Assembly (NCBI GenBank): GCA_043785185.1
Contig: JAYVXL010000840.1
Coordinates: 1-10,382, forward strand
DNA length: 10,382 nt
Direction: 5' to 3'
Source: Myxococcales bacterium
GTDB taxonomy: Bacteria > Myxococcota_A > Polyangia > Polyangiales > Polyangiaceae
In this document: positions 816 through 10,382 of the stretch, one piece after another
How the letters are laid out: every line of letters starts with the position of its first letter
Position numbering within the stretch: the first letter of the stretch is position 1
Notes under the pieces: model-generated
Told to the model about the DNA's origin: nothing
What the model saw: only the letters and a program-made list of their open reading frames with translations
The model's database searches: none
Program-made: the position numbers and the translations under genes

Positions 816-1544
816 TCAGCACCGGCACGCGAACGAGGCGCCCGACGGCGAGCACGTCTCACCGCCGATGAACCCGCAGCAGAAGAAGCCGAAGCAGCAC
901 GAGTTGCCGCACCGGCCGCAGTTGTTGTCCGACGAGAGCGACGTCTCGCAGCCGTTGGCCGGATTGCCGTCGCAGTCGCCCCAGCCGGGGAGGCACCCGC
1001 TGCACACGCCGACGGTACCGCCGTTGCCACACATCTGGTGGCCGGGGCAGTCCGAGGCGGCGCAGCAAGAGTGGCACGCTCCGTCGGCGCAGACGCGCTG
1101 GCCGACCGGACAGCCGCAGCTCCCGCCGTCGAGGATCGAGCCCTCGGGGCAGCCGAAATCGCAAGTGCCCGCGTCGCTGCACGTCGCAAAGCCGGAGCCG
1201 GGCGACGGGCACATCTCGCCGCAGCCGAGCGCGCAGCCCGCTTCCGGAAAATTCGACTGGGTCGGCGCGCAGGTCTTGCCGCACGCGTGGAGACCGGGCG
1301 TGCACGTCCCGCAGCCGGGCCCGGTGAAGCCGTCGGGGCAGCCGGCGTCGGCGCGCGGGCCGCCGGTATCGCTGTCCGCGGACGCTTCGGAGACCGTCGC
1401 GTCGCTCGGACCCGGTGTCCCGGCTTCGTCGGTGCCGTCGCCGCCGAGCGTGTCCGTCGCCGCGCCGTTGGCGCACGCGACGAGCCGGAGCAGCGCGCCG
1501 ATGGCCGCGAGCGTGAGGACGTTTCGGGGGAGGCTCAGCCGCAT
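816..1544 (-). CDS. Cysteine-rich secreted lipoprotein (33 Cys in 242 aa), EGF-like / C-x-x-C rich repeats
   Basis: The signal peptide has a canonical lipobox (LLRLVA|C) and is followed by an acidic low-complexity linker. Dense Cys patterns follow, e.g. CPDGFTGPGCGTC and GDCDGNPANGCETSLSSDNNCGRCGNSC. It is convergent with the Omp85 gene, with 4 nt between the stops. Confidence 0.7.
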   Translation of the reverse strand: MRLSLPRNVLTLAAIGALLRLVACANGAATDTLGGDGTDEAGTPGPSDATVSEASADSDTGGPRADAGCPDGFTGPGCGTCTPGLHACGKTCAPTQSNFPEAGCALGCGEMCPSPGSGFATCSDAGTCDFGCPEGSILDGGSCGCPVGQRVCADGACHSCCAASDCPGHQMCGNGGTVGVCSGCLPGWGDCDGNPANGCETSLSSDNNCGRCGNSCCFGFFCCGFIGGETCSPSGASFACRC

Positions 1545-1655: not shown

Positions 1656-2987
1656 TCAGAGCGTCGCGAGGTAGGCGCGGAGCGCGGCGCGATCCGCGTC
1701 GCCCAGCGCGAGGCCGAAGAGGTGGCCGCGGACGGGGCCGCCGCGCTCGCTCTCGAAGTCGGGGCGGACGCGCGCAGGATCGAACATCGCATCGAGGCTC
1801 GGGAGCGACGCGTCGTGAAGGAGCGCGCGACGCGACGCGACGCCGTGGAGCGACGGCACGCGGTAGCTTCCGGTGCCGCGGTCGGTGGAGAGGCCGATCG
1901 CCGGATCGGTGCCGACCACGTCGAGCGGCACCGGCGGCCCTGAGAGCGCGGGCGGCGCGTGGCAGCGCGCGCAGGTCGCCTCGAAGACCGCCGCGCCCCG
2001 GGCCTCTGCGCCGTCCCTCGGCGGCGCCGCCGGGAGCGCATCCGCGAGCGACCACACGAAGGCCGCGAGCCCCAGCGACACCTCGCGCGGCGGACGAACC
2101 TGCGCGCCGTGCGTCGTGATGATCAGCGTCTCGATGCGCACCGCCAAGGTCGCGCGATCCTTCTGCGCGACGGACGCGTCGGCCTGGAGATGCGTGAGCC
2201 ACCGCACCGGGCGCAGGTCGGCGATCTTGACCGGCTCCGCGCCGCGCAACGTCGTGACGTCGACGCGCCCCGGCCCCCACGCGCGCCACGGCGCTGCGGC
2301 CTCGGGCGACTGGCCGCGGCGCACGGCGGCGTCGCCGAAGAGGCGCCCGAGCTCGAGCCGCTCGTTGCCGAGGCCGACGATCAACCCGCCTTCGGGCGCG
2401 CGCGACGACGCGTGGCACGTCGCGCACGTGAACGCGAGCGCGGGCGCGCGCGCCGGCAGCTCCACGCGCACGAGCGCCGCCGCGCCGCGCGCATCGTCCG
2501 TCCAGAAGCCGTAGCTCGCGAACGCCTCGCGCGACGCGGTCGCGATCTGCGCGGAGGCGTCGATCTGCATCGGGTAGCGGAAGAACGCGTCCTCGCCGAG
2601 CGCGCGCAGCGCCGCCTCTTCGCCGCGCCGCGCTTCGTCGGAGATCGCGAGCGCGCGCGCGTCGGGACCGAGCGCCGCCGCCCCATCGACGCCGCCCGGC
2701 GCGTCGAGATCCGTCGCGCGCACGACGTCGACGCGCGGGTTCCACTCGGGCAGCGCGGCCCAGTCGCCCGCTTGCCCCGTCTCGTAAGCCGCGAGGCGCC
2801 GTCGCGAGTAGCCGTTGTCGGGGTTCACGAGCGACGCCACGAGCGTCGCGCGGCGGAACGCGCCGCTCGCGAGGTAGGGCTCGTTCGACGGCGCGGCGAC
2901 GCTGCCGGCGAAGCACGCCGACGCGAGGGCCGCGCTCGCCAGCGCTGCCACGGCGCGACGAACGAAGGGACGCGAGGGCGCGGGCAT
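1656..2987 (-). CDS. Di-haem cytochrome c, cytochrome-c-peroxidase/MauG-like superfamily, exported
   Basis: There are two CxxCH haem-binding motifs: CATCH (2412-2426) and CARCH (1959-1973). The C-terminal haem-domain stretch YRVPSLHGVASRRALLHDASLPSLDAMF resembles the CCP/MauG motif (F/Y)KxPSLRN...HDGS..LE. An N-terminal signal peptide is present (AVAALASAALASA|C). Confidence 0.8.
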   Translation of the reverse strand: MPAPSRPFVRRAVAALASAALASACFAGSVAAPSNEPYLASGAFRRATLVASLVNPDNGYSRRRLAAYETGQAGDWAALPEWNPRVDVVRATDLDAPGGVDGAAALGPDARALAISDEARRGEEAALRALGEDAFFRYPMQIDASAQIATASREAFASYGFWTDDARGAAALVRVELPARAPALAFTCATCHASSRAPEGGLIVGLGNERLELGRLFGDAAVRRGQSPEAAAPWRAWGPGRVDVTTLRGAEPVKIADLRPVRWLTHLQADASVAQKDRATLAVRIETLIITTHGAQVRPPREVSLGLAAFVWSLADALPAAPPRDGAEARGAAVFEATCARCHAPPALSGPPVPLDVVGTDPAIGLSTDRGTGSYRVPSLHGVASRRALLHDASLPSLDAMFDPARVRPDFESERGGPVRGHLFGLALGDADRAALRAYLATL

Positions 2988-3132: not shown

Positions 3133-3753
3133 CTACTTTTTCGCGGCGGCGGCGGCGCGAACCTGCGCGAGGATGTCCGCCGGCGACGGGCGATCGGTCA
3201 TCTCCTCACCGACGCGCTTCCACGCCACGGAGCGGTCCTTGCGGACGATGAACGTCGCCGGCACCGCGATGTCGCGCCCGTCCATCGCGACGCCGTACGC
3301 CGTGATGACGTGCAAATCCATGTCGGAGAGCAGCGGGAACTGGAGCCCGAGCTCCTGGGCGAGCTTGGCCGACTCGTCGGCCGCGTCGACGCTGATGGCG
3401 ACGACCTGGGCGTGCTGGGCCTCGAGCTGCGGTCGAATCTGCTCCAGCTGCACGAGCTGGCTGCGGCAGAAGGGTCACCAGAAGCCGCGGTAAAAGACGA
3501 GCACCGCGGGCCCGTTGGCCGTGAGCGTCGCGAGCGAGACCTTCGCGCCCGTTTGGTCGGCGAGCGTGAAGTCGGGCGCTTGCGCCGCCGCGAGCGTCTG
3601 CCCGGCGCGTCGGGCGATGGGCCTGTAAACGCCCGCCGCGACGATCGCGCCGAGCACCACGACGACGATCGCGAGCCCGATGAGGACGCGCCGCACGACG
3701 CGTCGTGTGCGGGACGGCTGCGGTGCGACGACTTCGGCGGACATCGGTGGCAC
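3133..3753 (-). CDS. Membrane-anchored AhpC/TSA (Prx-like) thioredoxin-fold redoxin with an in-frame TGA at the first Cys of the CxxC motif (candidate Sec; otherwise a pseudogene)
   Basis: ORFs 3475..3753 and 3133..3453 are in the same frame. Read-through gives ...AVLVFYRGFW-[TGA 3475-3477]-PFCRSQLVQLEQ..., 206 aa in total. The N-terminus has RTRRVVRR followed by one TM helix (LIGLAIVVVVLGAIVAAGV). The start is either GTG 3753 or ATG 3744. Confidence 0.6.
3438..3470 (-). promoter_or_regulatory. Candidate bacterial SECIS-like hairpin directly downstream of the in-frame UGA
   Basis: On the mRNA, the lower stem is UCUGC/GCAGA and the upper stem is CCAGCU/AGCUGG (3444-3460). The apical loop is CGUGC and begins 21 nt after the UGA. 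There is an asymmetric internal loop. Confidence 0.35.
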
Positions 3754-3847: not shown

Positions 3848-4278
<431 letters not shown>

Positions 4279-4410: not shown

Positions 4411-4725
4411 TCACGAGCAGTTCGCCCGCGAGCGTAACGAGCGCGTAATCAGCAGAGACATCGCGGCGAGGCCGAGCCCGAAGGCGCCCGCGTGCAACGC
4501 GCTCCGCGGCTCGAAGTCTCCAACGCGCAAGAGCAGCGCGTAGGCGACGACGAGGTTGCCCAGTCCATACATGACGTTCACGCGCGGCGACGACAGCCCG
4601 CGGAACGGGGGCGAGGCGAACGGGGTCGGAAACGTGCGCCCCAGCACCCCCGAGACGAAGTGCGGGACGAAGTTTGCGAAGAAGGCGCCCGCGAAGAAGT
4701 ACGTCGGGAAGTGAAACCAGAGCAT
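4411..4725 (-). CDS. Small hydrophobic membrane protein (about 3 TM helices), function unknown
   Basis: The protein reads MLWFHFPTYFFAGAFFANFVPHFVSG...VNVMYGLGNLVVAYALLL...AGAFGLGLAAMSLLI. GC3 is high. It is divergent from the TetR gene. Confidence 0.5.
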   Translation of the reverse strand: MLWFHFPTYFFAGAFFANFVPHFVSGVLGRTFPTPFASPPFRGLSSPRVNVMYGLGNLVVAYALLLRVGDFEPRSALHAGAFGLGLAAMSLLITRSLRSRANCS

Positions 4726-5374
4726 GCGACCTCCGAACGCCGAGCTGGCCGAGTCCGGCTACAGGGCATTTCGCATGGACGTGGCGAGCGCGGCGGCCGG
4801 GGTCAACAAGACCACGATCTACCGGCGCTGGCCCGGCAAGAAGCAACTCGTGGCGGCCGCTGTCGACTGGATGCGCAGGTTCGTGCATGACGTGCCGCTG
4901 CCCGACACGGGCTCGCTTGAGCGGGACCTCATCGAGGCCTTCCGGCGCAGGGTGAGGTTCAAGGATCGCGTCGAGGGGCAGGCGTGGGCGCGACTGCTCG
5001 CGGAGAAAAACGACCCCGACGTCAGCGCCGTCATCGGCGACGCTGTCAAGGAGCGCAGCGAGTCTTGGTACGCGATGGTCACGCGGGCGATCGCGCGCAG
5101 CGATCTCCCCGACGGCACCGACGCGCGGCTGCTCTTGGGGATGCTCGGGGCGGTCGTCGACGCGTGGAACGCGAGTTCGTCAGGCCGGCTGAAGGTCGAG
5201 CTGCTCCAGGCTGCCGTGCGCACCGTCGTCGCCGGCGCGCGCTCGGGCTCACTGGTTCGCTCCAGCGGGCGTCGCGGGACCGTGCGCGCGCTGCCACGAA
5301 TGGCGCCGGACGCGTCCGGGTTGACCCGTCATCGGAGCTCGGGGATCGCGAGCTCCGTCAAGAAGCGCAATTGA
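4724..5374 (+). CDS. TetR/AcrR-family transcriptional regulator, apparently lacking part of helix alpha-1
   Basis: The HTH region reads SGYRAFRMDVASAAAGVNKTTIYRRWPGKKQLVAAAV. Only about 10 residues precede the GY position, where TetR proteins usually have about 20-25. The stop lies 4 nt before repeat copy 2. Confidence 0.7.
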   Translation: MRPPNAELAESGYRAFRMDVASAAAGVNKTTIYRRWPGKKQLVAAAVDWMRRFVHDVPLPDTGSLERDLIEAFRRRVRFKDRVEGQAWARLLAEKNDPDVSAVIGDAVKERSESWYAMVTRAIARSDLPDGTDARLLLGMLGAVVDAWNASSSGRLKVELLQAAVRTVVAGARSGSLVRSSGRRGTVRALPRMAPDASGLTRHRSSGIASSVKKRN

Positions 5375-7169: not shown

Positions 7170-7241
7170 GGGGCACACCCACGCGCGAAGTGCGTCCCGC
7201 CCTATCGCACGAGAAAGAATCGTGAAAAAGACTCATGCGAG

Positions 7242-7257
7242 TGGCACACAGCATGCT
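7242..7257 (+). promoter_or_regulatory. Sigma-54 (-24/-12) type promoter candidate for the lysyl-oxidase-like gene
   Basis: TGGCAC-acagc-ATGCT compares with the consensus TGGCAC-N5-TTGCW. The GG (7243-7244) and GC (7255-7256) have the canonical spacing. It lies about 50 nt upstream of ATG 7307. Confidence 0.4.
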
Positions 7258-7306
7258 ACTGACTCCCACCCTGTACCTGACGACGACAAATGGGGAGGCG
7301 GTTCCA

Positions 7307-9214
7307 ATGGGCATGGGATGGAAGACGGGTCTTGGGGGGATTGGAATCGCGCTGAGCATGCTGGGGTACGCGTGCAGCAGCGATCCCGGAGCGCTGAGCG
7401 GCGCTAGGGAGAATCCGTCCCAAGTGACGTCGGGTTTGACCACGGCGGGTGCTCTCGTGCGCATGGACATGAGCTCCACGGTCGGCGTGCTCCTCGACGA
7501 TCTCCCGCTGGCCAACCGCGACGCGGCCGCGGCCGCCGCGCTCGCCCAGCCCGCCAGCTTTTGGACCGACCGCGCGACGCGGCAGGCGCGACTCACGTAC
7601 TACCGACTTGCGTTCCGGGGAGGCTTCTACACGACGACGCCTCCGAAGGGGCCCCTGCCTCTGCCTCCGGATCCCGTCTGGCACATCCAGCTCACGGGAC
7701 GGCCGCAGCGCGCAACGATCGGCGGTCACGATCTGGTCGTCGTGAACTACTCGTTCAACTCGTACATCCTCAGCGATACGACGTCGCCGGGGATCGTGGA
7801 GCCCTCGCTCGGCACAGTTGGCGGAACGTGGGACGAACCCTTCAATCTCCCCATCGATCCGGAGCTTCTGCTCCAGCGCACGGGCTACGCCTGCATGGAC
7901 GAGTTCGAGTACCCCGCGGGGAGCGTGTTCGAGGAGAACGCCTACTATTTCTACGACCAGACCTGCACGGCAGGGTCAAAGTACTGCCACGTCACGAATT
8001 TCCCAAGCTTGGGATGCGGCGACGCGCTCGAGAAATACGTGGGGAACATCAAGCCGGAACTGCATTTCGCCCGCGTTGCGTACGATGCAACGCTCGCGAG
8101 CCAGTTTCGGGTCGGCACCGTCACGCCCGCAACGCAGAGCATCGCGACCGGGGCCGCCGATCTCGCGGTCGTCCAGGAGCCGCTGCGCGACGAGCACCGC
8201 ATTGCCTACCGTTTCTTCGGGCCCGGCTCCTGCGACCTCGGTGAGGGGACGATCGCGCAGCTCGGTTGGCGCCGCCTGCTCATGTTCTCGGCGGTGGTTC
8301 GAAACGACGGGACGGGGCCGGTCCACATCGGCAACGTGACCGATCCCACAAACCCATGGGTCCAGGCAGGCGCCTTCGAGTACAGCGCTTGCCACAAGCA
8401 CTACCACTTCAGCCACTACGGCTCCTTTAGCTACAACGGCTTGCCCGGGAGCAAGCGGGCGTTCTGCCTCGAAGACACGAACCGGTACCACAACGACGAG
8501 GTCACGCCGCTTACGGCGGTTCACCAGAGCTGCGAGTACCAAGGGATCGGCGCCGGATGGGGAGACGAGTACCAGTTCGGTCTCCCCGGACAGTGGGTCG
8601 ACATCACCGCCACCAGCACTTCGGCGACATCGGGCCTCTCGAACCAGCTGACGTTCGTCTCGAACAAGGATCAGTACATGTGTGAGGGAGCGCTTGGCAG
8701 CCCGCTTTTCCCCGTGGACGCGAGCGGCAAAATCATCTTTGGGTCGAAGCCCAACTGCACGTTCTTCTCGGGTTGGGGTAGCAACAACTCAGGCAGCGTG
8801 ACGGTCACCTCCCCGGGCGGGAGCTTCGTCACCGAGGCTTGCACGCGCGGACAGATCGGACCCAAACGCGATTGCGGCTTCACGGACACGCAGGCCCTCC
8901 ACAGCTGCGCATCCGGAAGCACGGTCAGACTCAAGTGCTCGACCACCGCAAGCACGCCCCAAGTCTTGCGCCTCTGCGAAAGGAGCGCGCAGCTCGGCGT
9001 GGGCGTCGCCTGCACCCTCGCCGACTCGGCCGCGAACGCGCTGGTCGATTCCGGCGGCACGAACGTGACCTTTGCGTGCCCAGCGGTGCGCGACGCCGCG
9101 CTCGACACCTCCGGAAATCCGACGACCAGCCCCGGGGTCGGCGGCTACTCCGTTTACAACGCGCCGCTCAGCCCGTCGGACACGGCCGGAGCGATCACCT
9201 GCACGGGCTGGTGA
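7307..9214 (+). CDS. Secreted lysyl-oxidase-family (copper amine oxidase, LTQ-type) protein with large unassigned N-terminal and Cys-rich C-terminal regions
   Basis: Several segments parallel human LOX:
- WRRLLMFSAVVRNDGTG matches HRVLLRFPQRVKNQGTS.
- FEYSACHKHYH matches WEWHSCHQHYH (the Cu His triad, at 8393-8407).
- GSKRAFCLEDT matches GHKASFCLEDT (Lys at 8453-8455).
- GWGDEYQFGLPGQWVDIT matches GCYDTYGADIDCQWIDIT (Tyr at 8570-8572).
The start is placed at ATG 7307, with GGAGG at 7294-7298 and the signal peptide MGMGWKTGLGGIGIALSMLGYA|C. Confidence 0.85.
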   Translation: MGMGWKTGLGGIGIALSMLGYACSSDPGALSGARENPSQVTSGLTTAGALVRMDMSSTVGVLLDDLPLANRDAAAAAALAQPASFWTDRATRQARLTYYRLAFRGGFYTTTPPKGPLPLPPDPVWHIQLTGRPQRATIGGHDLVVVNYSFNSYILSDTTSPGIVEPSLGTVGGTWDEPFNLPIDPELLLQRTGYACMDEFEYPAGSVFEENAYYFYDQTCTAGSKYCHVTNFPSLGCGDALEKYVGNIKPELHFARVAYDATLASQFRVGTVTPATQSIATGAADLAVVQEPLRDEHRIAYRFFGPGSCDLGEGTIAQLGWRRLLMFSAVVRNDGTGPVHIGNVTDPTNPWVQAGAFEYSACHKHYHFSHYGSFSYNGLPGSKRAFCLEDTNRYHNDEVTPLTAVHQSCEYQGIGAGWGDEYQFGLPGQWVDITATSTSATSGLSNQLTFVSNKDQYMCEGALGSPLFPVDASGKIIFGSKPNCTFFSGWGSNNSGSVTVTSPGGSFVTEACTRGQIGPKRDCGFTDTQALHSCASGSTVRLKCSTTASTPQVLRLCERSAQLGVGVACTLADSAANALVDSGGTNVTFACPAVRDAALDTSGNPTTSPGVGGYSVYNAPLSPSDTAGAITCTGW

Positions 9215-9596
9215 AACGCTTGGCCTCCGAACCGAGCCGCCAACGCGGACCTTCGCCGCACGCAGCGTCGCGGGGGTGAGCTTCGCCCGCGGCCTCGAGC
9301 GCGCGGCTGTTGGCGAGCGCGCGGTGGTAGGGGTAGTGCAGTGCGAGCAGCGGTCGGTCGGGTATGGCGTCGTCGAGCTCCTGGCGGGTCGGCGCGCGCC
9401 GTTCGGCCAATCCCGCCTCGTCCCAATCGGCGGCGATGAGCCACTGCCCGGGGGGCGGCGGCGGCGCTGGCAGCAGCAAGAGCGCGCTGCAATCCCGCGA
9501 TATCGACGATCGCGGGCGGCCGAGGCGCACCGTTCCCCCGTAGAGGGCGTGGATGCAGGGGTGGTGGGGCGCGTCGATGAATCCGGGGGTGACGGT
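9195..9596 (-). pseudogene. Amidohydrolase (Amidohydro_3-type) gene remnant lacking both the N-terminal about 50 aa and the C-terminal about 300+ aa
   Basis: The minus-strand frame reads TVTPGFIDAPHHPCIH...GQWLIAADWDEAGLAERRAPTRQELDDAIPDRPLLALHYPYHRALANSRALEAAG. There is no proper start; an upstream in-frame TGA lies at 9654-9656. The metal-site DAHxH reads DAPHH. Recognisable similarity ends near 9285 and the frame runs into the 3' end of the LOX gene. Confidence 0.55.
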
Positions 9597-9806
9597 TGAA
9601 CGCGCCGACGCTTGCAGAATGCAACAAGGCGCTCGACAACTCTTGGCGATATCTCACGGCACAGCGCCTCGCGGTCTCGTGTACTCTCGCAGAATGCCCG
9701 CCGGCGCCCCACGCACCTCGTGGCTACGCCAGGGGTTAGCGGTGCTCATTGGTACCGTCACCCTTGGCGAAGAAGGCAGAGATCGATCGCACGTTGGGGT
9801 GCGGTC

Positions 9807-10382
9807 GTGAAGGGGTCAATCCTTCTCGCCTTCTTCGCGGCGATGGGGTGCTCGCGAACCGCCACGCGTCCGGCACCGTCCTCGTCGAGCAGCACGGATG
9901 CGACAACGTTGGCCGCTCCGCAGTCGACTACGCGTGAACAGGTCTCGGTGACCGCCAAGGGAGATCCCTTCGGACTTCGCGTTGAAGGCGGAACGATCTC
10001 CTTCTGCGACAAGCGCGGGGGTCGAAAGATCGACCTCGCAACCGGCGAGGATGCTGCGTTCGAGCGAACGTGCTCGAGAGACCGCGAGCCGAACACCGCG
10101 TGTGGTGAGCTTCCGCTTGAGGTCACAGTGAGTACGCCCGACCTCGGCCCAAACGATCTCGTAGACGTGAACGGCTCGCGCTTTCCACTCGACGGTCGAG
10201 TTCACGACTGCACGGCCGACGTGAAGGTGCTCACCATCGTCACGGGGGCGTCGGTGGTGGTGATCGACGCGGCAACGAATAAGAGCAACGTTCTCGATCA
10301 CACGGGAGGGGATCGGGCGGCGATCGGGCCGGGGTGGATTGCGTGGACGAGCGGCTCGACGGTTCGGGCGAAGCGCCGATGA
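9807..10382 (+). CDS. Hypothetical small exported protein, possible lipoprotein
   Basis: The GTG start at 9807 gives VKGSILLAFFAAMG|CSRT followed by a Ser-rich linker. The upstream 65 codons of the longer ORF (9612-) are Arg-rich and not protein-like. The stop is at the window end. Confidence 0.5.
   Translation: MKGSILLAFFAAMGCSRTATRPAPSSSSSTDATTLAAPQSTTREQVSVTAKGDPFGLRVEGGTISFCDKRGGRKIDLATGEDAAFERTCSRDREPNTACGELPLEVTVSTPDLGPNDLVDVNGSRFPLDGRVHDCTADVKVLTIVTGASVVVIDAATNKSNVLDHTGGDRAAIGPGWIAWTSGSTVRAKRR

Follow-up and report, generated by a model that had tools for sequence, protein, structure and literature searches.

A redoxin gene interrupted by a single in-frame TGA

The 10,382-nucleotide (nt) stretch of DNA analysed here (contig JAYVXL010000840.1 of the Myxococcales bacterium assembly GCA_043785185.1; hereafter the window) carries, on the minus strand between positions 3133 and 3780, a redoxin gene that is broken by one internal stop codon and that very probably encodes a selenoprotein. 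Translated in a single frame, the region reads ...GPAVLVFYRGFW*PFCRSQLVQLEQ...AAAKK*, where the internal stop (first asterisk) is the TGA at 3477-3475, the sole interruption of the frame that runs from an ATG at 3744 to a TAG at 3133. The open reading frames (ORFs) listed for the region, 3475..3753 and 3133..3453 (both minus strand), share this frame; the upstream ORF ends ...VLVFYRGFW-TGA, and the 21 nt directly after the TGA (3474-3454) encode PFCRSQL. A model-generated note on this DNA, made from the letters and an ORF list and hereafter called the original prediction, had joined the two ORFs across these 21 nt into one read-through product of 206 amino acids (aa), and all of its coordinates hold.

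The length of the read-through product depends on the start codon, being 206 aa if translation begins at GTG 3753 and 203 aa if it begins at ATG 3744. In the Logan assembly of sequencing run SRR23617254 the 648-nt region is identical, TGA included, and the Logan gene calls there, which use the ATG as start, are for pieces of 89 aa and 106 aa. We therefore consider ATG 3744 the likely start, which yields a product of 203 aa with the UGA as codon 90 (U90 in this numbering); the original prediction counted from GTG 3753, which is how it arrived at 206 aa and at column 93 for the same codon. The features of the gene are as follows, all on the minus strand.

3133..3744, minus: predicted complete selenoprotein gene, ATG 3744-3742 to TAG 3135-3133, 203 codons with UGA as codon 90; alternative start GTG 3753
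3475..3477, minus: in-frame UGA, presumed selenocysteine U90, at the nucleophilic N-terminal position of a U-P-F-C redox motif; TGA in 62 distinct orthologues
3466..3468, minus: UGC codon of Cys93, putative resolving partner of U90; invariant in both family alignments and aligned on the PVC Cys of PDB 2cx3
3444..3460, minus: conserved hairpin of selenocysteine insertion sequence (SECIS) type, type A; stem CCAGCU/AGCUGG at nt 15-20/26-31 after the UGA, loop CGUGC at nt 21-25
3438..3470, minus: full hairpin including the lower stem UCUGC/GCAGA (nt 5-9/33-37); the lower stem is in the minimum free energy fold and is peculiar to the window sequence
3625..3687, minus: hydrophobic segment V20-Y40, putative signal anchor, preceded by five Arg; top 15-residue Kyte-Doolittle mean 3.25
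3220..3585, minus: AhpC/TSA (thioredoxin-fold) domain, residues 54-175; Pfam PF00578 E=1.3e-30, BCP 2cx3 9e-17, ResA 4nmu 3e-13

The TGA codon in homologues and in the family tree

The original prediction had placed the stop on the nucleophilic Cys of a conserved FYRG-x-W-C-P-x-C motif, and an alignment with 20 database homologues puts the TGA in that very column, the first Cys of a nearly invariant F-Y-R-G-x-W-C-P-x-C block. The column is occupied by C in 18 of these homologues. The mistranslated protein P0001 (JGI) shows W there, yet the DNA of its contig (L001, JGI 3300086342) reads FYRGFW-TGA-TYC. A further homologue, P0050, is a C-terminal fragment that begins after the motif, and the corresponding contigs L002 and L003 read FYRGHW-TGA-AHC, with the gene split in two. 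Both of these relatives, with TGA at the critical codon, are among the closest database homologues, and the other relatives retrieved by the protein search were Cys-type or oddly annotated only.

A genome scan, for which a small family alignment was used as query against one genome per species (GTDB representatives), retrieved 80 loci, and about 60 of these carry TGA at exactly the U90 codon. When duplicates are removed and the metagenome loci and the window are counted, 62 distinct sequences have TGA and 20 do not; the non-TGA homologues have TGC or TGT in 19 cases and TCC in one, and the TGC/TGT carriers are the more distant homologues. All seven members of the window's own cluster in the tree (L004-L009 and L011, at 52-63% identity) have TGA, L010 falling just outside this group. 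The comparison with homologues and relatives that the original prediction had proposed thus finds TGA at the U90 codon in every close relative retrieved, and the pattern it had named as speaking against its claim, TGC in close relatives with no conservation of the hairpin, was not what we observed, as all close relatives have TGA and the hairpin is kept.

The TGA form is found in metagenome-assembled genomes (MAGs) of Polyangiaceae and Polyangiales, among them the seven loci L004-L009 and L011, in Nannocystaceae, Kofleriaceae, Anaeromyxobacter and Archangium, and in Planctomycetota, Chloroflexi, Dormiibacterota, Acidobacteriota and one Spirochaetia MAG. Among the carriers of TGC or TGT, Bacteroidota (Hymenobacter being one example), Verrucomicrobiota and Proteobacteria predominate, the last represented by one gammaproteobacterial MAG and one Burkholderiales MAG. 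The TGA forms, which we refer to as selenocysteine (Sec) forms, make up one large clade when the domain is placed in a neighbour-joining tree. In this clade the window is sister to L004, its nearest orthologue, from MAG JBBRLQ01, and most Cys forms make up an outgroup clade. The Sec clade is interrupted by a single Cys form (L022) and a single Ser form (L056). Sec has been lost in both of them: L022 (6684) has TGC and no longer has the hairpin (4 of 7 pairs), and L056 (6115) has TCC, read as Ser in W-S-S-H-C, together with a hairpin that keeps 6 of 7 pairs and looks like a relic SECIS.

Constraint on the gene does not drop after the internal stop. Identity between the window and its orthologues is equal on either side of the UGA (45 residues before and 105 after), with before/after values of 0.71/0.68 for L004 and 0.53/0.67 for L005, and the GC content at third codon positions (GC3) of the gene is 0.90 before the TGA and 0.94 after it. 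Additionally, TGA is the normal stop of five of the eight well-supported genes in the window, and the standard code therefore applies, with no genome-wide reassignment of this codon.

A covarying hairpin downstream of the TGA

Positions in the hairpin are numbered from the first base after the UGA. In the window, the lower stem (UCUGC/GCAGA) starts at nt 5, the upper stem (CCAGCU/AGCUGG) lies at nt 15-20/26-31, and the apical loop CGUGC at nt 21-25 has G as its second base. A hairpin of this kind had been part of the original prediction, and its geometry and upper stem were borne out, the latter corresponding to the commonest register in the orthologues and covarying among them, while its lower stem was not, being unconserved. 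The structure lies directly downstream of the UGA and has a small G-containing apical loop at a fixed distance from that codon, as is expected of a SECIS. The significance of the hairpin comes from cross-species comparison, because single-sequence folding is uninformative alone.

Two registers were recognised among the Sec forms. In the first (type A), which comprises 44 Sec forms, six or more of the seven positions 15-21 can pair with positions 25-31, with the consensus C-CAGCUC-GGN-GAGCUG-G; the window belongs to this register with CCAGCU-CGUGC-AGCUGG. The second (type B) comprises 10 Sec forms and 5 weaker ones, and has its stem at nt 11-16/22-27 and an AGUUG loop at nt 17-21. The registers share conserved Gln-Leu codons, which are used either as a stem arm (CAGCUC) or as a stem end plus AGUUG loop (CAG-UUG). 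Of the 20 non-Sec homologues, L056 alone fits type A; this is the Ser form nested in the Sec clade, and its hairpin is probably a relic.

Both registers show compensatory change. In type A, pair 15/31 occurs as C-G (25 sequences), G-C (13), U-A (2) and G-U (1), and the substitution at nt 31 is one that changes the protein sequence; pair 21/25 occurs as C-G (28), G-C (2) and U-A (1). The type A covariation score is 0.177, as against 0.063±0.013 in shuffled data (0 of 500 shuffles reach 0.177) and a maximum of 0.073 for slid partners, and double-change cells number 19 as against 5.6 in the shuffles. In type B, pair 15/23 is G-C in 10 sequences and C-G in 7, pair 12/26 is C-G, U-A or A-U, and the covariation score is 0.382 as against 0.102 when shuffled (0 of 500).

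We also estimated how often such geometries follow a TGA by chance. Within the family, a loosely defined type A geometry is present after 39 Sec codons, the background in the high-GC loci being 60 of about 20,400 TGA triplets outside the family (0.3%). A strict type B pattern (TGA, 10 nt, a perfect 6-bp stem and an AGTTN loop) was matched 10 times in the 2.4 Mb scanned, always at in-frame UxxC sites, and nine of the matches belong to the family of the window gene. The tenth is in L013, a Polyangiaceae MAG, on the minus strand (7794-10052 in plus-strand coordinates), where a protein made up of LVIVD repeats and a C-terminal AhpC/TSA domain (Pfam E=1.5e-11) reads VVVLAYFALF-TGA-PIC. The stem in L013, GUCUGG/CCAGAC, is unrelated in sequence to the type B stems, while its position and its AGUUG loop are identical to theirs. 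By these features the LVIVD-redoxin fusion is a candidate second selenoprotein, and its element lends independent support to the view that the hairpin acts at the RNA level and that Polyangiaceae-type genomes decode Sec. A scan for further genes with in-frame TGA by GC3 continuity was very noisy, and its one credible extra candidate was this gene in L013.

Domain, motif and likely location of the protein

When Cys is put in place of the stop, residues 54-175 match the Pfam families AhpC-TSA (E=1.3e-30, with a PF00578 score of 106.4 bits as against a gathering cut-off of 26) and Redoxin (E=3.6e-23). The best solved structures by sequence are the BCP-type peroxiredoxin 2cx3 (9e-17) and ResA 4nmu (3e-13). 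In the alignment with 2cx3, FFPAAFSPVC is paired with FYRGFWUPFC and Cys93 falls at the peroxidatic-Cys position, and in the alignment with ResA, U90 and C93 fall on the CxxC cysteine pair. We therefore describe the centre as a thioredoxin-type UxxC on a peroxiredoxin-like (Prx-like) scaffold.

Narrower assignments were considered and rejected. The protein is not a canonical peroxiredoxin, since of the PxxxT/SxxC signature in 2cx3 only the Cys is kept, Pro being replaced by Arg and Ser/Thr by Sec. It also falls short of the NCBIfam SelL-related model NF040769 (71.6 bits as against a cut-off of 120; E=5.8e-20, model positions 2-100 of 173) and of the ResA/TlpA/DsbE models NF002854 (65.5 as against 170) and TIGR00385 (25.8 as against 123). 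No NCBIfam model reached its own cut-off for the read-through protein.

The positively charged N-terminus and hydrophobic segment described in the original prediction are present, as five Arg followed by the 21-residue hydrophobic stretch V20-Y40. A crude screen by regular expression and hydropathy found a lipobox-like motif, or else a strongly hydrophobic stretch near the N-terminus, in 37 of 63 Sec-form loci; many orthologues have lipoprotein signals (LVASGC and LLATGC, for example), and the Chloroflexi and Dormiibacterota forms are without an N-terminal extension. From these signals it is plausible that the redox domain lies outside the cytoplasm in a periplasmic orientation, by means of a signal anchor here and of lipoprotein signals in many orthologues, and an extracytoplasmic location can reasonably be inferred for the Myxococcota forms. 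A separate group of Sec forms (L061, L063, L071, L079 and L082, from Kofleriaceae and one deltaproteobacterial MAG) is 314-348 aa long, with a C-terminal extension of about 130-170 residues past the redoxin domain.

Relation to known families

Selenoprotein reviews define families by domain plus motif (PMC9312934, PMC1088965). The window gene combines PF00578 with U-P-F-C and, by domain and motif, is a member of the Prx-like thiol:disulfide oxidoreductase family (PF00578, UxxC). Since 2004-2005 a bacterial selenoprotein family named "Prx-like protein", in which a thioredoxin-like UXXC replaces TXXU, has been recognised by computational prediction (PMC1088965), and "Prx-like 1, pfam00578, UxxC" was represented by 225 sequences in the Global Ocean Sampling (GOS) study (PMC2398784). 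This is an established family with a function predicted by bioinformatics only (PMC1088965, PMC2398784, PMC9312934, PMC13188914).

Like the Prx-like selenoproteins (for example WP_010940744.1 of Geobacter sulfurreducens), the window protein has an AhpC/TSA domain with Sec at the N-terminal position of the motif, a UxxC (UxxC/UxxU in the family) that replaces TxxU, a SECIS hairpin directly after the UGA and widespread Cys homologues. It differs in that its clade, which was compared with the family by domain and motif, has a signature of its own, VLVFYRGxW-U-xxC...DR, is concentrated in MAGs of Myxococcota (Polyangia) and appears to be mostly exported, by lipoprotein signal or signal anchor.

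Other families are similar in part. The PRX_like2/SelL-related family (NF040769; cd02970) is the best NCBIfam match, the Cys homologues are named "peroxiredoxin-like family protein", and the second Cys of CxxC sits at the Prx peroxidatic position. The motif of eukaryotic SelL is UxxU. The only cd02970 entry in the table of a 2026 review has UxxS, whereas the window has UxxC; a further entry in the review literature is "Redoxin family protein PF08534 UxxC". With ResA/TlpA/DsbE (CcmG) the protein shares a membrane-anchored or lipoprotein extracytoplasmic thioredoxin fold and a W-C-x-x-C that aligns with the U motif, but it scores far under the cut-offs of these families and has Sec in place of Cys. 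BCP/PrxQ (Aeropyrum pernix BCP, 2cx3) and PrxU belong to the same Pfam family, 2cx3 being the best structure match; in contrast to these proteins, the window protein has its Sec 3 residues before the peroxidatic-Cys position and not at that position, and its score against the PrxU model NF040737 is 24 bits as against a cut-off of 270. A literature search by name for Sec in Myxococcota returned nothing relevant, and the main texts of BSepDB and deep-Sep do not mention the window gene's family under the terms searched.

Evidence for selenocysteine and alternative explanations

We conclude that 3744-3133 (minus strand) is very probably one gene for a 203-aa selenoprotein in which UGA 90 is recoded as selenocysteine. 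The original prediction of a UxxC selenoprotein, for which a pseudogene was the null hypothesis, is supported by the shared TGA, the placement in the Sec clade and the covarying hairpin. At the level of sequence comparison the recoding is established, and by analogy with known selenoproteins we infer Sec as the inserted residue, dependence on SelB and tRNA-Sec, the topology, and the catalytic chemistry and substrate.

Several observations weigh against this conclusion. None of selA, selB, selD and tRNA-Sec was found in the 10.4-kb window or in the sequence flanking the orthologues (about 1.2 Mb), and the sample's Logan contigs are 5-6 kb long: ARAGORN detected no tRNA-Sec in the window or in any of the loci, and tblastn with E. 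coli SelA, SelB and SelD against the 1.2 Mb of flanks gave no match to them, the sole GTPase match, a SelB-like one in L010, being IF-2 and not SelB. The cultured Polyangiaceae Sorangium and Chondromyces do not appear among the Sec users listed in 2016 (PMC5029168 supplement). The hairpin itself is no stabler than shuffled sequence (z=+0.77 for the window's 66 nt), RNAfold favours a register shifted by 3 nt (-15.9 as against -13.3 kcal/mol for the structure first proposed), and a search of the entire window against Rfam, with E values as high as 10 allowed, found no SECIS family, the only strong match being a transfer-messenger RNA (tmRNA). The hairpin overlaps the codons of a conserved Q-L-G-E-L, so its sequence conservation is partly driven by the protein. 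The type A and type B sets were sorted by pairing ability, which inflates the 94% of cells paired in type A but leaves the double substitutions unaffected, and GC content is a confounder of the stronger folding that Sec forms show in the 42 nt after the codon (mean -13.9 kcal/mol, as against -8.8 in non-Sec forms; p=5.7e-6).

Explanations other than a selenoprotein have to be set against the same evidence. A recent nonsense mutation could have turned an ordinary Cys redoxin into a pseudogene with an untranslated downstream part; the change from TGC to TGA takes a single base, gene callers split the gene, and the Sec machinery went unseen in the window and the orthologue flanks. Such a pseudogene is nevertheless very unlikely, given that the TGA is common to 62 distinct orthologues from several phyla and ancestral to the window's clade, that conservation is undiminished past the TGA with GC3 still at 0.94, and that the hairpin covaries. 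One base decides the reading, and an error of sequencing or assembly at 3475-3477 could hide a true TGC or TGG; we find this scarcely credible, as the separately built Logan assembly, though perhaps made from the same reads, is identical over 648 nt and the codon is TGA in dozens of unrelated assemblies. The W that the JGI pipeline gave for an orthologous TGA would fit a genome-wide reassignment of UGA to Trp or Gly (code 4 or 25), to which we attach next to no weight: TGA closes five of the eight well-supported window genes, the taxa concerned (Myxococcota and others) use code 11, and the homologues have Cys, not Trp or Gly, at the aligned position. The shared TGA, the equal constraint on both sides and the standard code therefore exclude, or nearly exclude, all three: recent nonsense mutation, faulty sequence and reassignment of the code.

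A further alternative is recoding to a residue other than Sec. The comparative evidence shows that the UGA is recoded and not the identity of the residue inserted. SelB-dependent tRNAs with a UCA anticodon can read UGA as Cys, and the hairpin might serve such a tRNA or near-cognate decoding as Trp or Cys; the absence of the cultured Polyangiaceae from the 2016 list of Sec users (PMC5029168 supplement) would be in keeping with this. On the other hand, U90 is a position of Cys/Sec interchange in a family already catalogued as selenoproteins, Cys-recoding systems are rare, and the same supplement records the Sec trait in many cultured myxobacteria, among them Anaeromyxobacter, Myxococcus, Corallococcus, Haliangium and Plesiocystis. 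For Plesiocystis pacifica SIR-1, six selenoproteins are reported. We regard non-Sec recoding as unlikely.

Proposed mechanism

For the selenoprotein, we propose that SelB, the elongation factor specific for Sec, would with its Sec-tRNA(Sec) bind the hairpin 15-31 nt after the UGA, and that UGA codon 90 would then be decoded as selenocysteine and not as a stop. The full-length protein would be anchored in the inner membrane by its N-terminal signal anchor, with the redox domain outside. There, U90 would act as the nucleophile and C93 would resolve it to a selenenylsulfide, so that U90-P-F-C93 would cycle between this and the selenol/thiol form, and a separate reductant would recycle the U90-C93 centre. 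By analogy with related proteins, the protein most likely acts as a thiol:disulfide oxidoreductase or as a reductant, and peroxides or sulfenic acids are possible substrates.

Annotation and wider meaning

Public pipelines mishandle this gene, as JGI gives W for the TGA and the ENA and Logan gene calls give two ORFs. Because callers split or mistranslate the gene, public protein sets, those of Myxococcota MAGs above all, hold truncated or incorrect sequences for an entire, widely distributed redox clade. The protein stays under the cut-off of every NCBIfam model and pipelines split the gene or translate its TGA as W, and for these reasons we tentatively raise the possibility, which we hold as a minority view of the data, that the VLVFYRGxW-U-xxC clade is a distinct, uncurated selenoprotein subfamily in which Sec is ancestral and the AGUUG element possibly a lineage-specific SelB consensus. 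The recurrence of that element in the unrelated L013 fusion is the reason why it may be such a recognition consensus. If this were true, Sec would be ancestral in a large, mostly exported group across Myxococcota/Polyangia and several other phyla, and the AGUUG-loop, 6-bp-stem element at UGA+11 could be used as a selenoprotein finder in high-GC MAGs.

The gene adds a presumably extracytoplasmic UxxC selenoprotein to Polyangia-type myxobacteria, together with a compact, comparatively validated two-register SECIS pattern for high-GC Myxococcota genomes. Selenoproteins of this type are already known in bacteria, and the gene does not change existing knowledge of how selenoproteins work. Its wider value is modest and lies in fixing a systematic annotation error across many MAGs and in this SECIS pattern.

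Neighbouring genes and other features of the window

No neighbour gene is conserved family-wide across 62 loci, synteny being limited to sub-clades. In one such sub-clade (L019, L023, L026, L027, L029 and L035, from Nannocystaceae and unclassified proteobacterial MAGs), a glutaredoxin-like gene lies directly downstream of the Sec redoxin, at about +300 to +700 nt past the motif; its product has a CPYC motif and a C-terminal hydrophobic segment and may be a redox partner of the Sec redoxin.

In the window, a 443-aa protein with two CxxCH haem motifs is encoded at 1656-2987 (minus strand), 145 nt downstream of the selenoprotein gene and on the same strand, with weak matches to Pfam Cytochrom_C and to an NCBIfam di-haem peroxidase model. 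This cytochrome c gene does not stand beside the orthologue in L004 or any other locus, and a search around the orthologues showed no conserved set of cytochrome-c-maturation genes. Inside this gene (GC3 0.93) and antisense to it, ARAGORN reported an 84-nt tRNA-Arg(CCG) at 1841-1924 (plus strand), where Rfam found no tRNA; the ARAGORN call is probably a false positive.

A complete tmRNA lies at 3848-4208 (plus strand; Rfam 162 bits, E=5e-65; ARAGORN tag peptide ANDNAIALAA), about 100 nt upstream of the selenoprotein gene and divergent from it, with a strong terminator hairpin at 4208-4236. No repeat of the tmRNA 3' end, as would mark the att site of a genomic island, was found in the window. 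The L004 locus has in common with the window a tmRNA, a Cys-rich protein and an Omp85 protein; its tmRNA has an identical tag and lies about 1.7 kb from the orthologue, and the Cys-rich protein is, in the window, a 242-aa secreted protein encoded at 816-1544 (minus strand) with a 59% identical copy in L004.

On the plus strand, 7235-9214 encodes a 659-aa protein with a lysyl-oxidase domain, and 4724-5374 encodes a TetR regulator whose helix-turn-helix begins almost at the first residue. A high-GC3 in-frame stretch lies upstream of a TGA at 4712, and this regulator gene may lack part of its N-terminus or have been assigned the wrong start.

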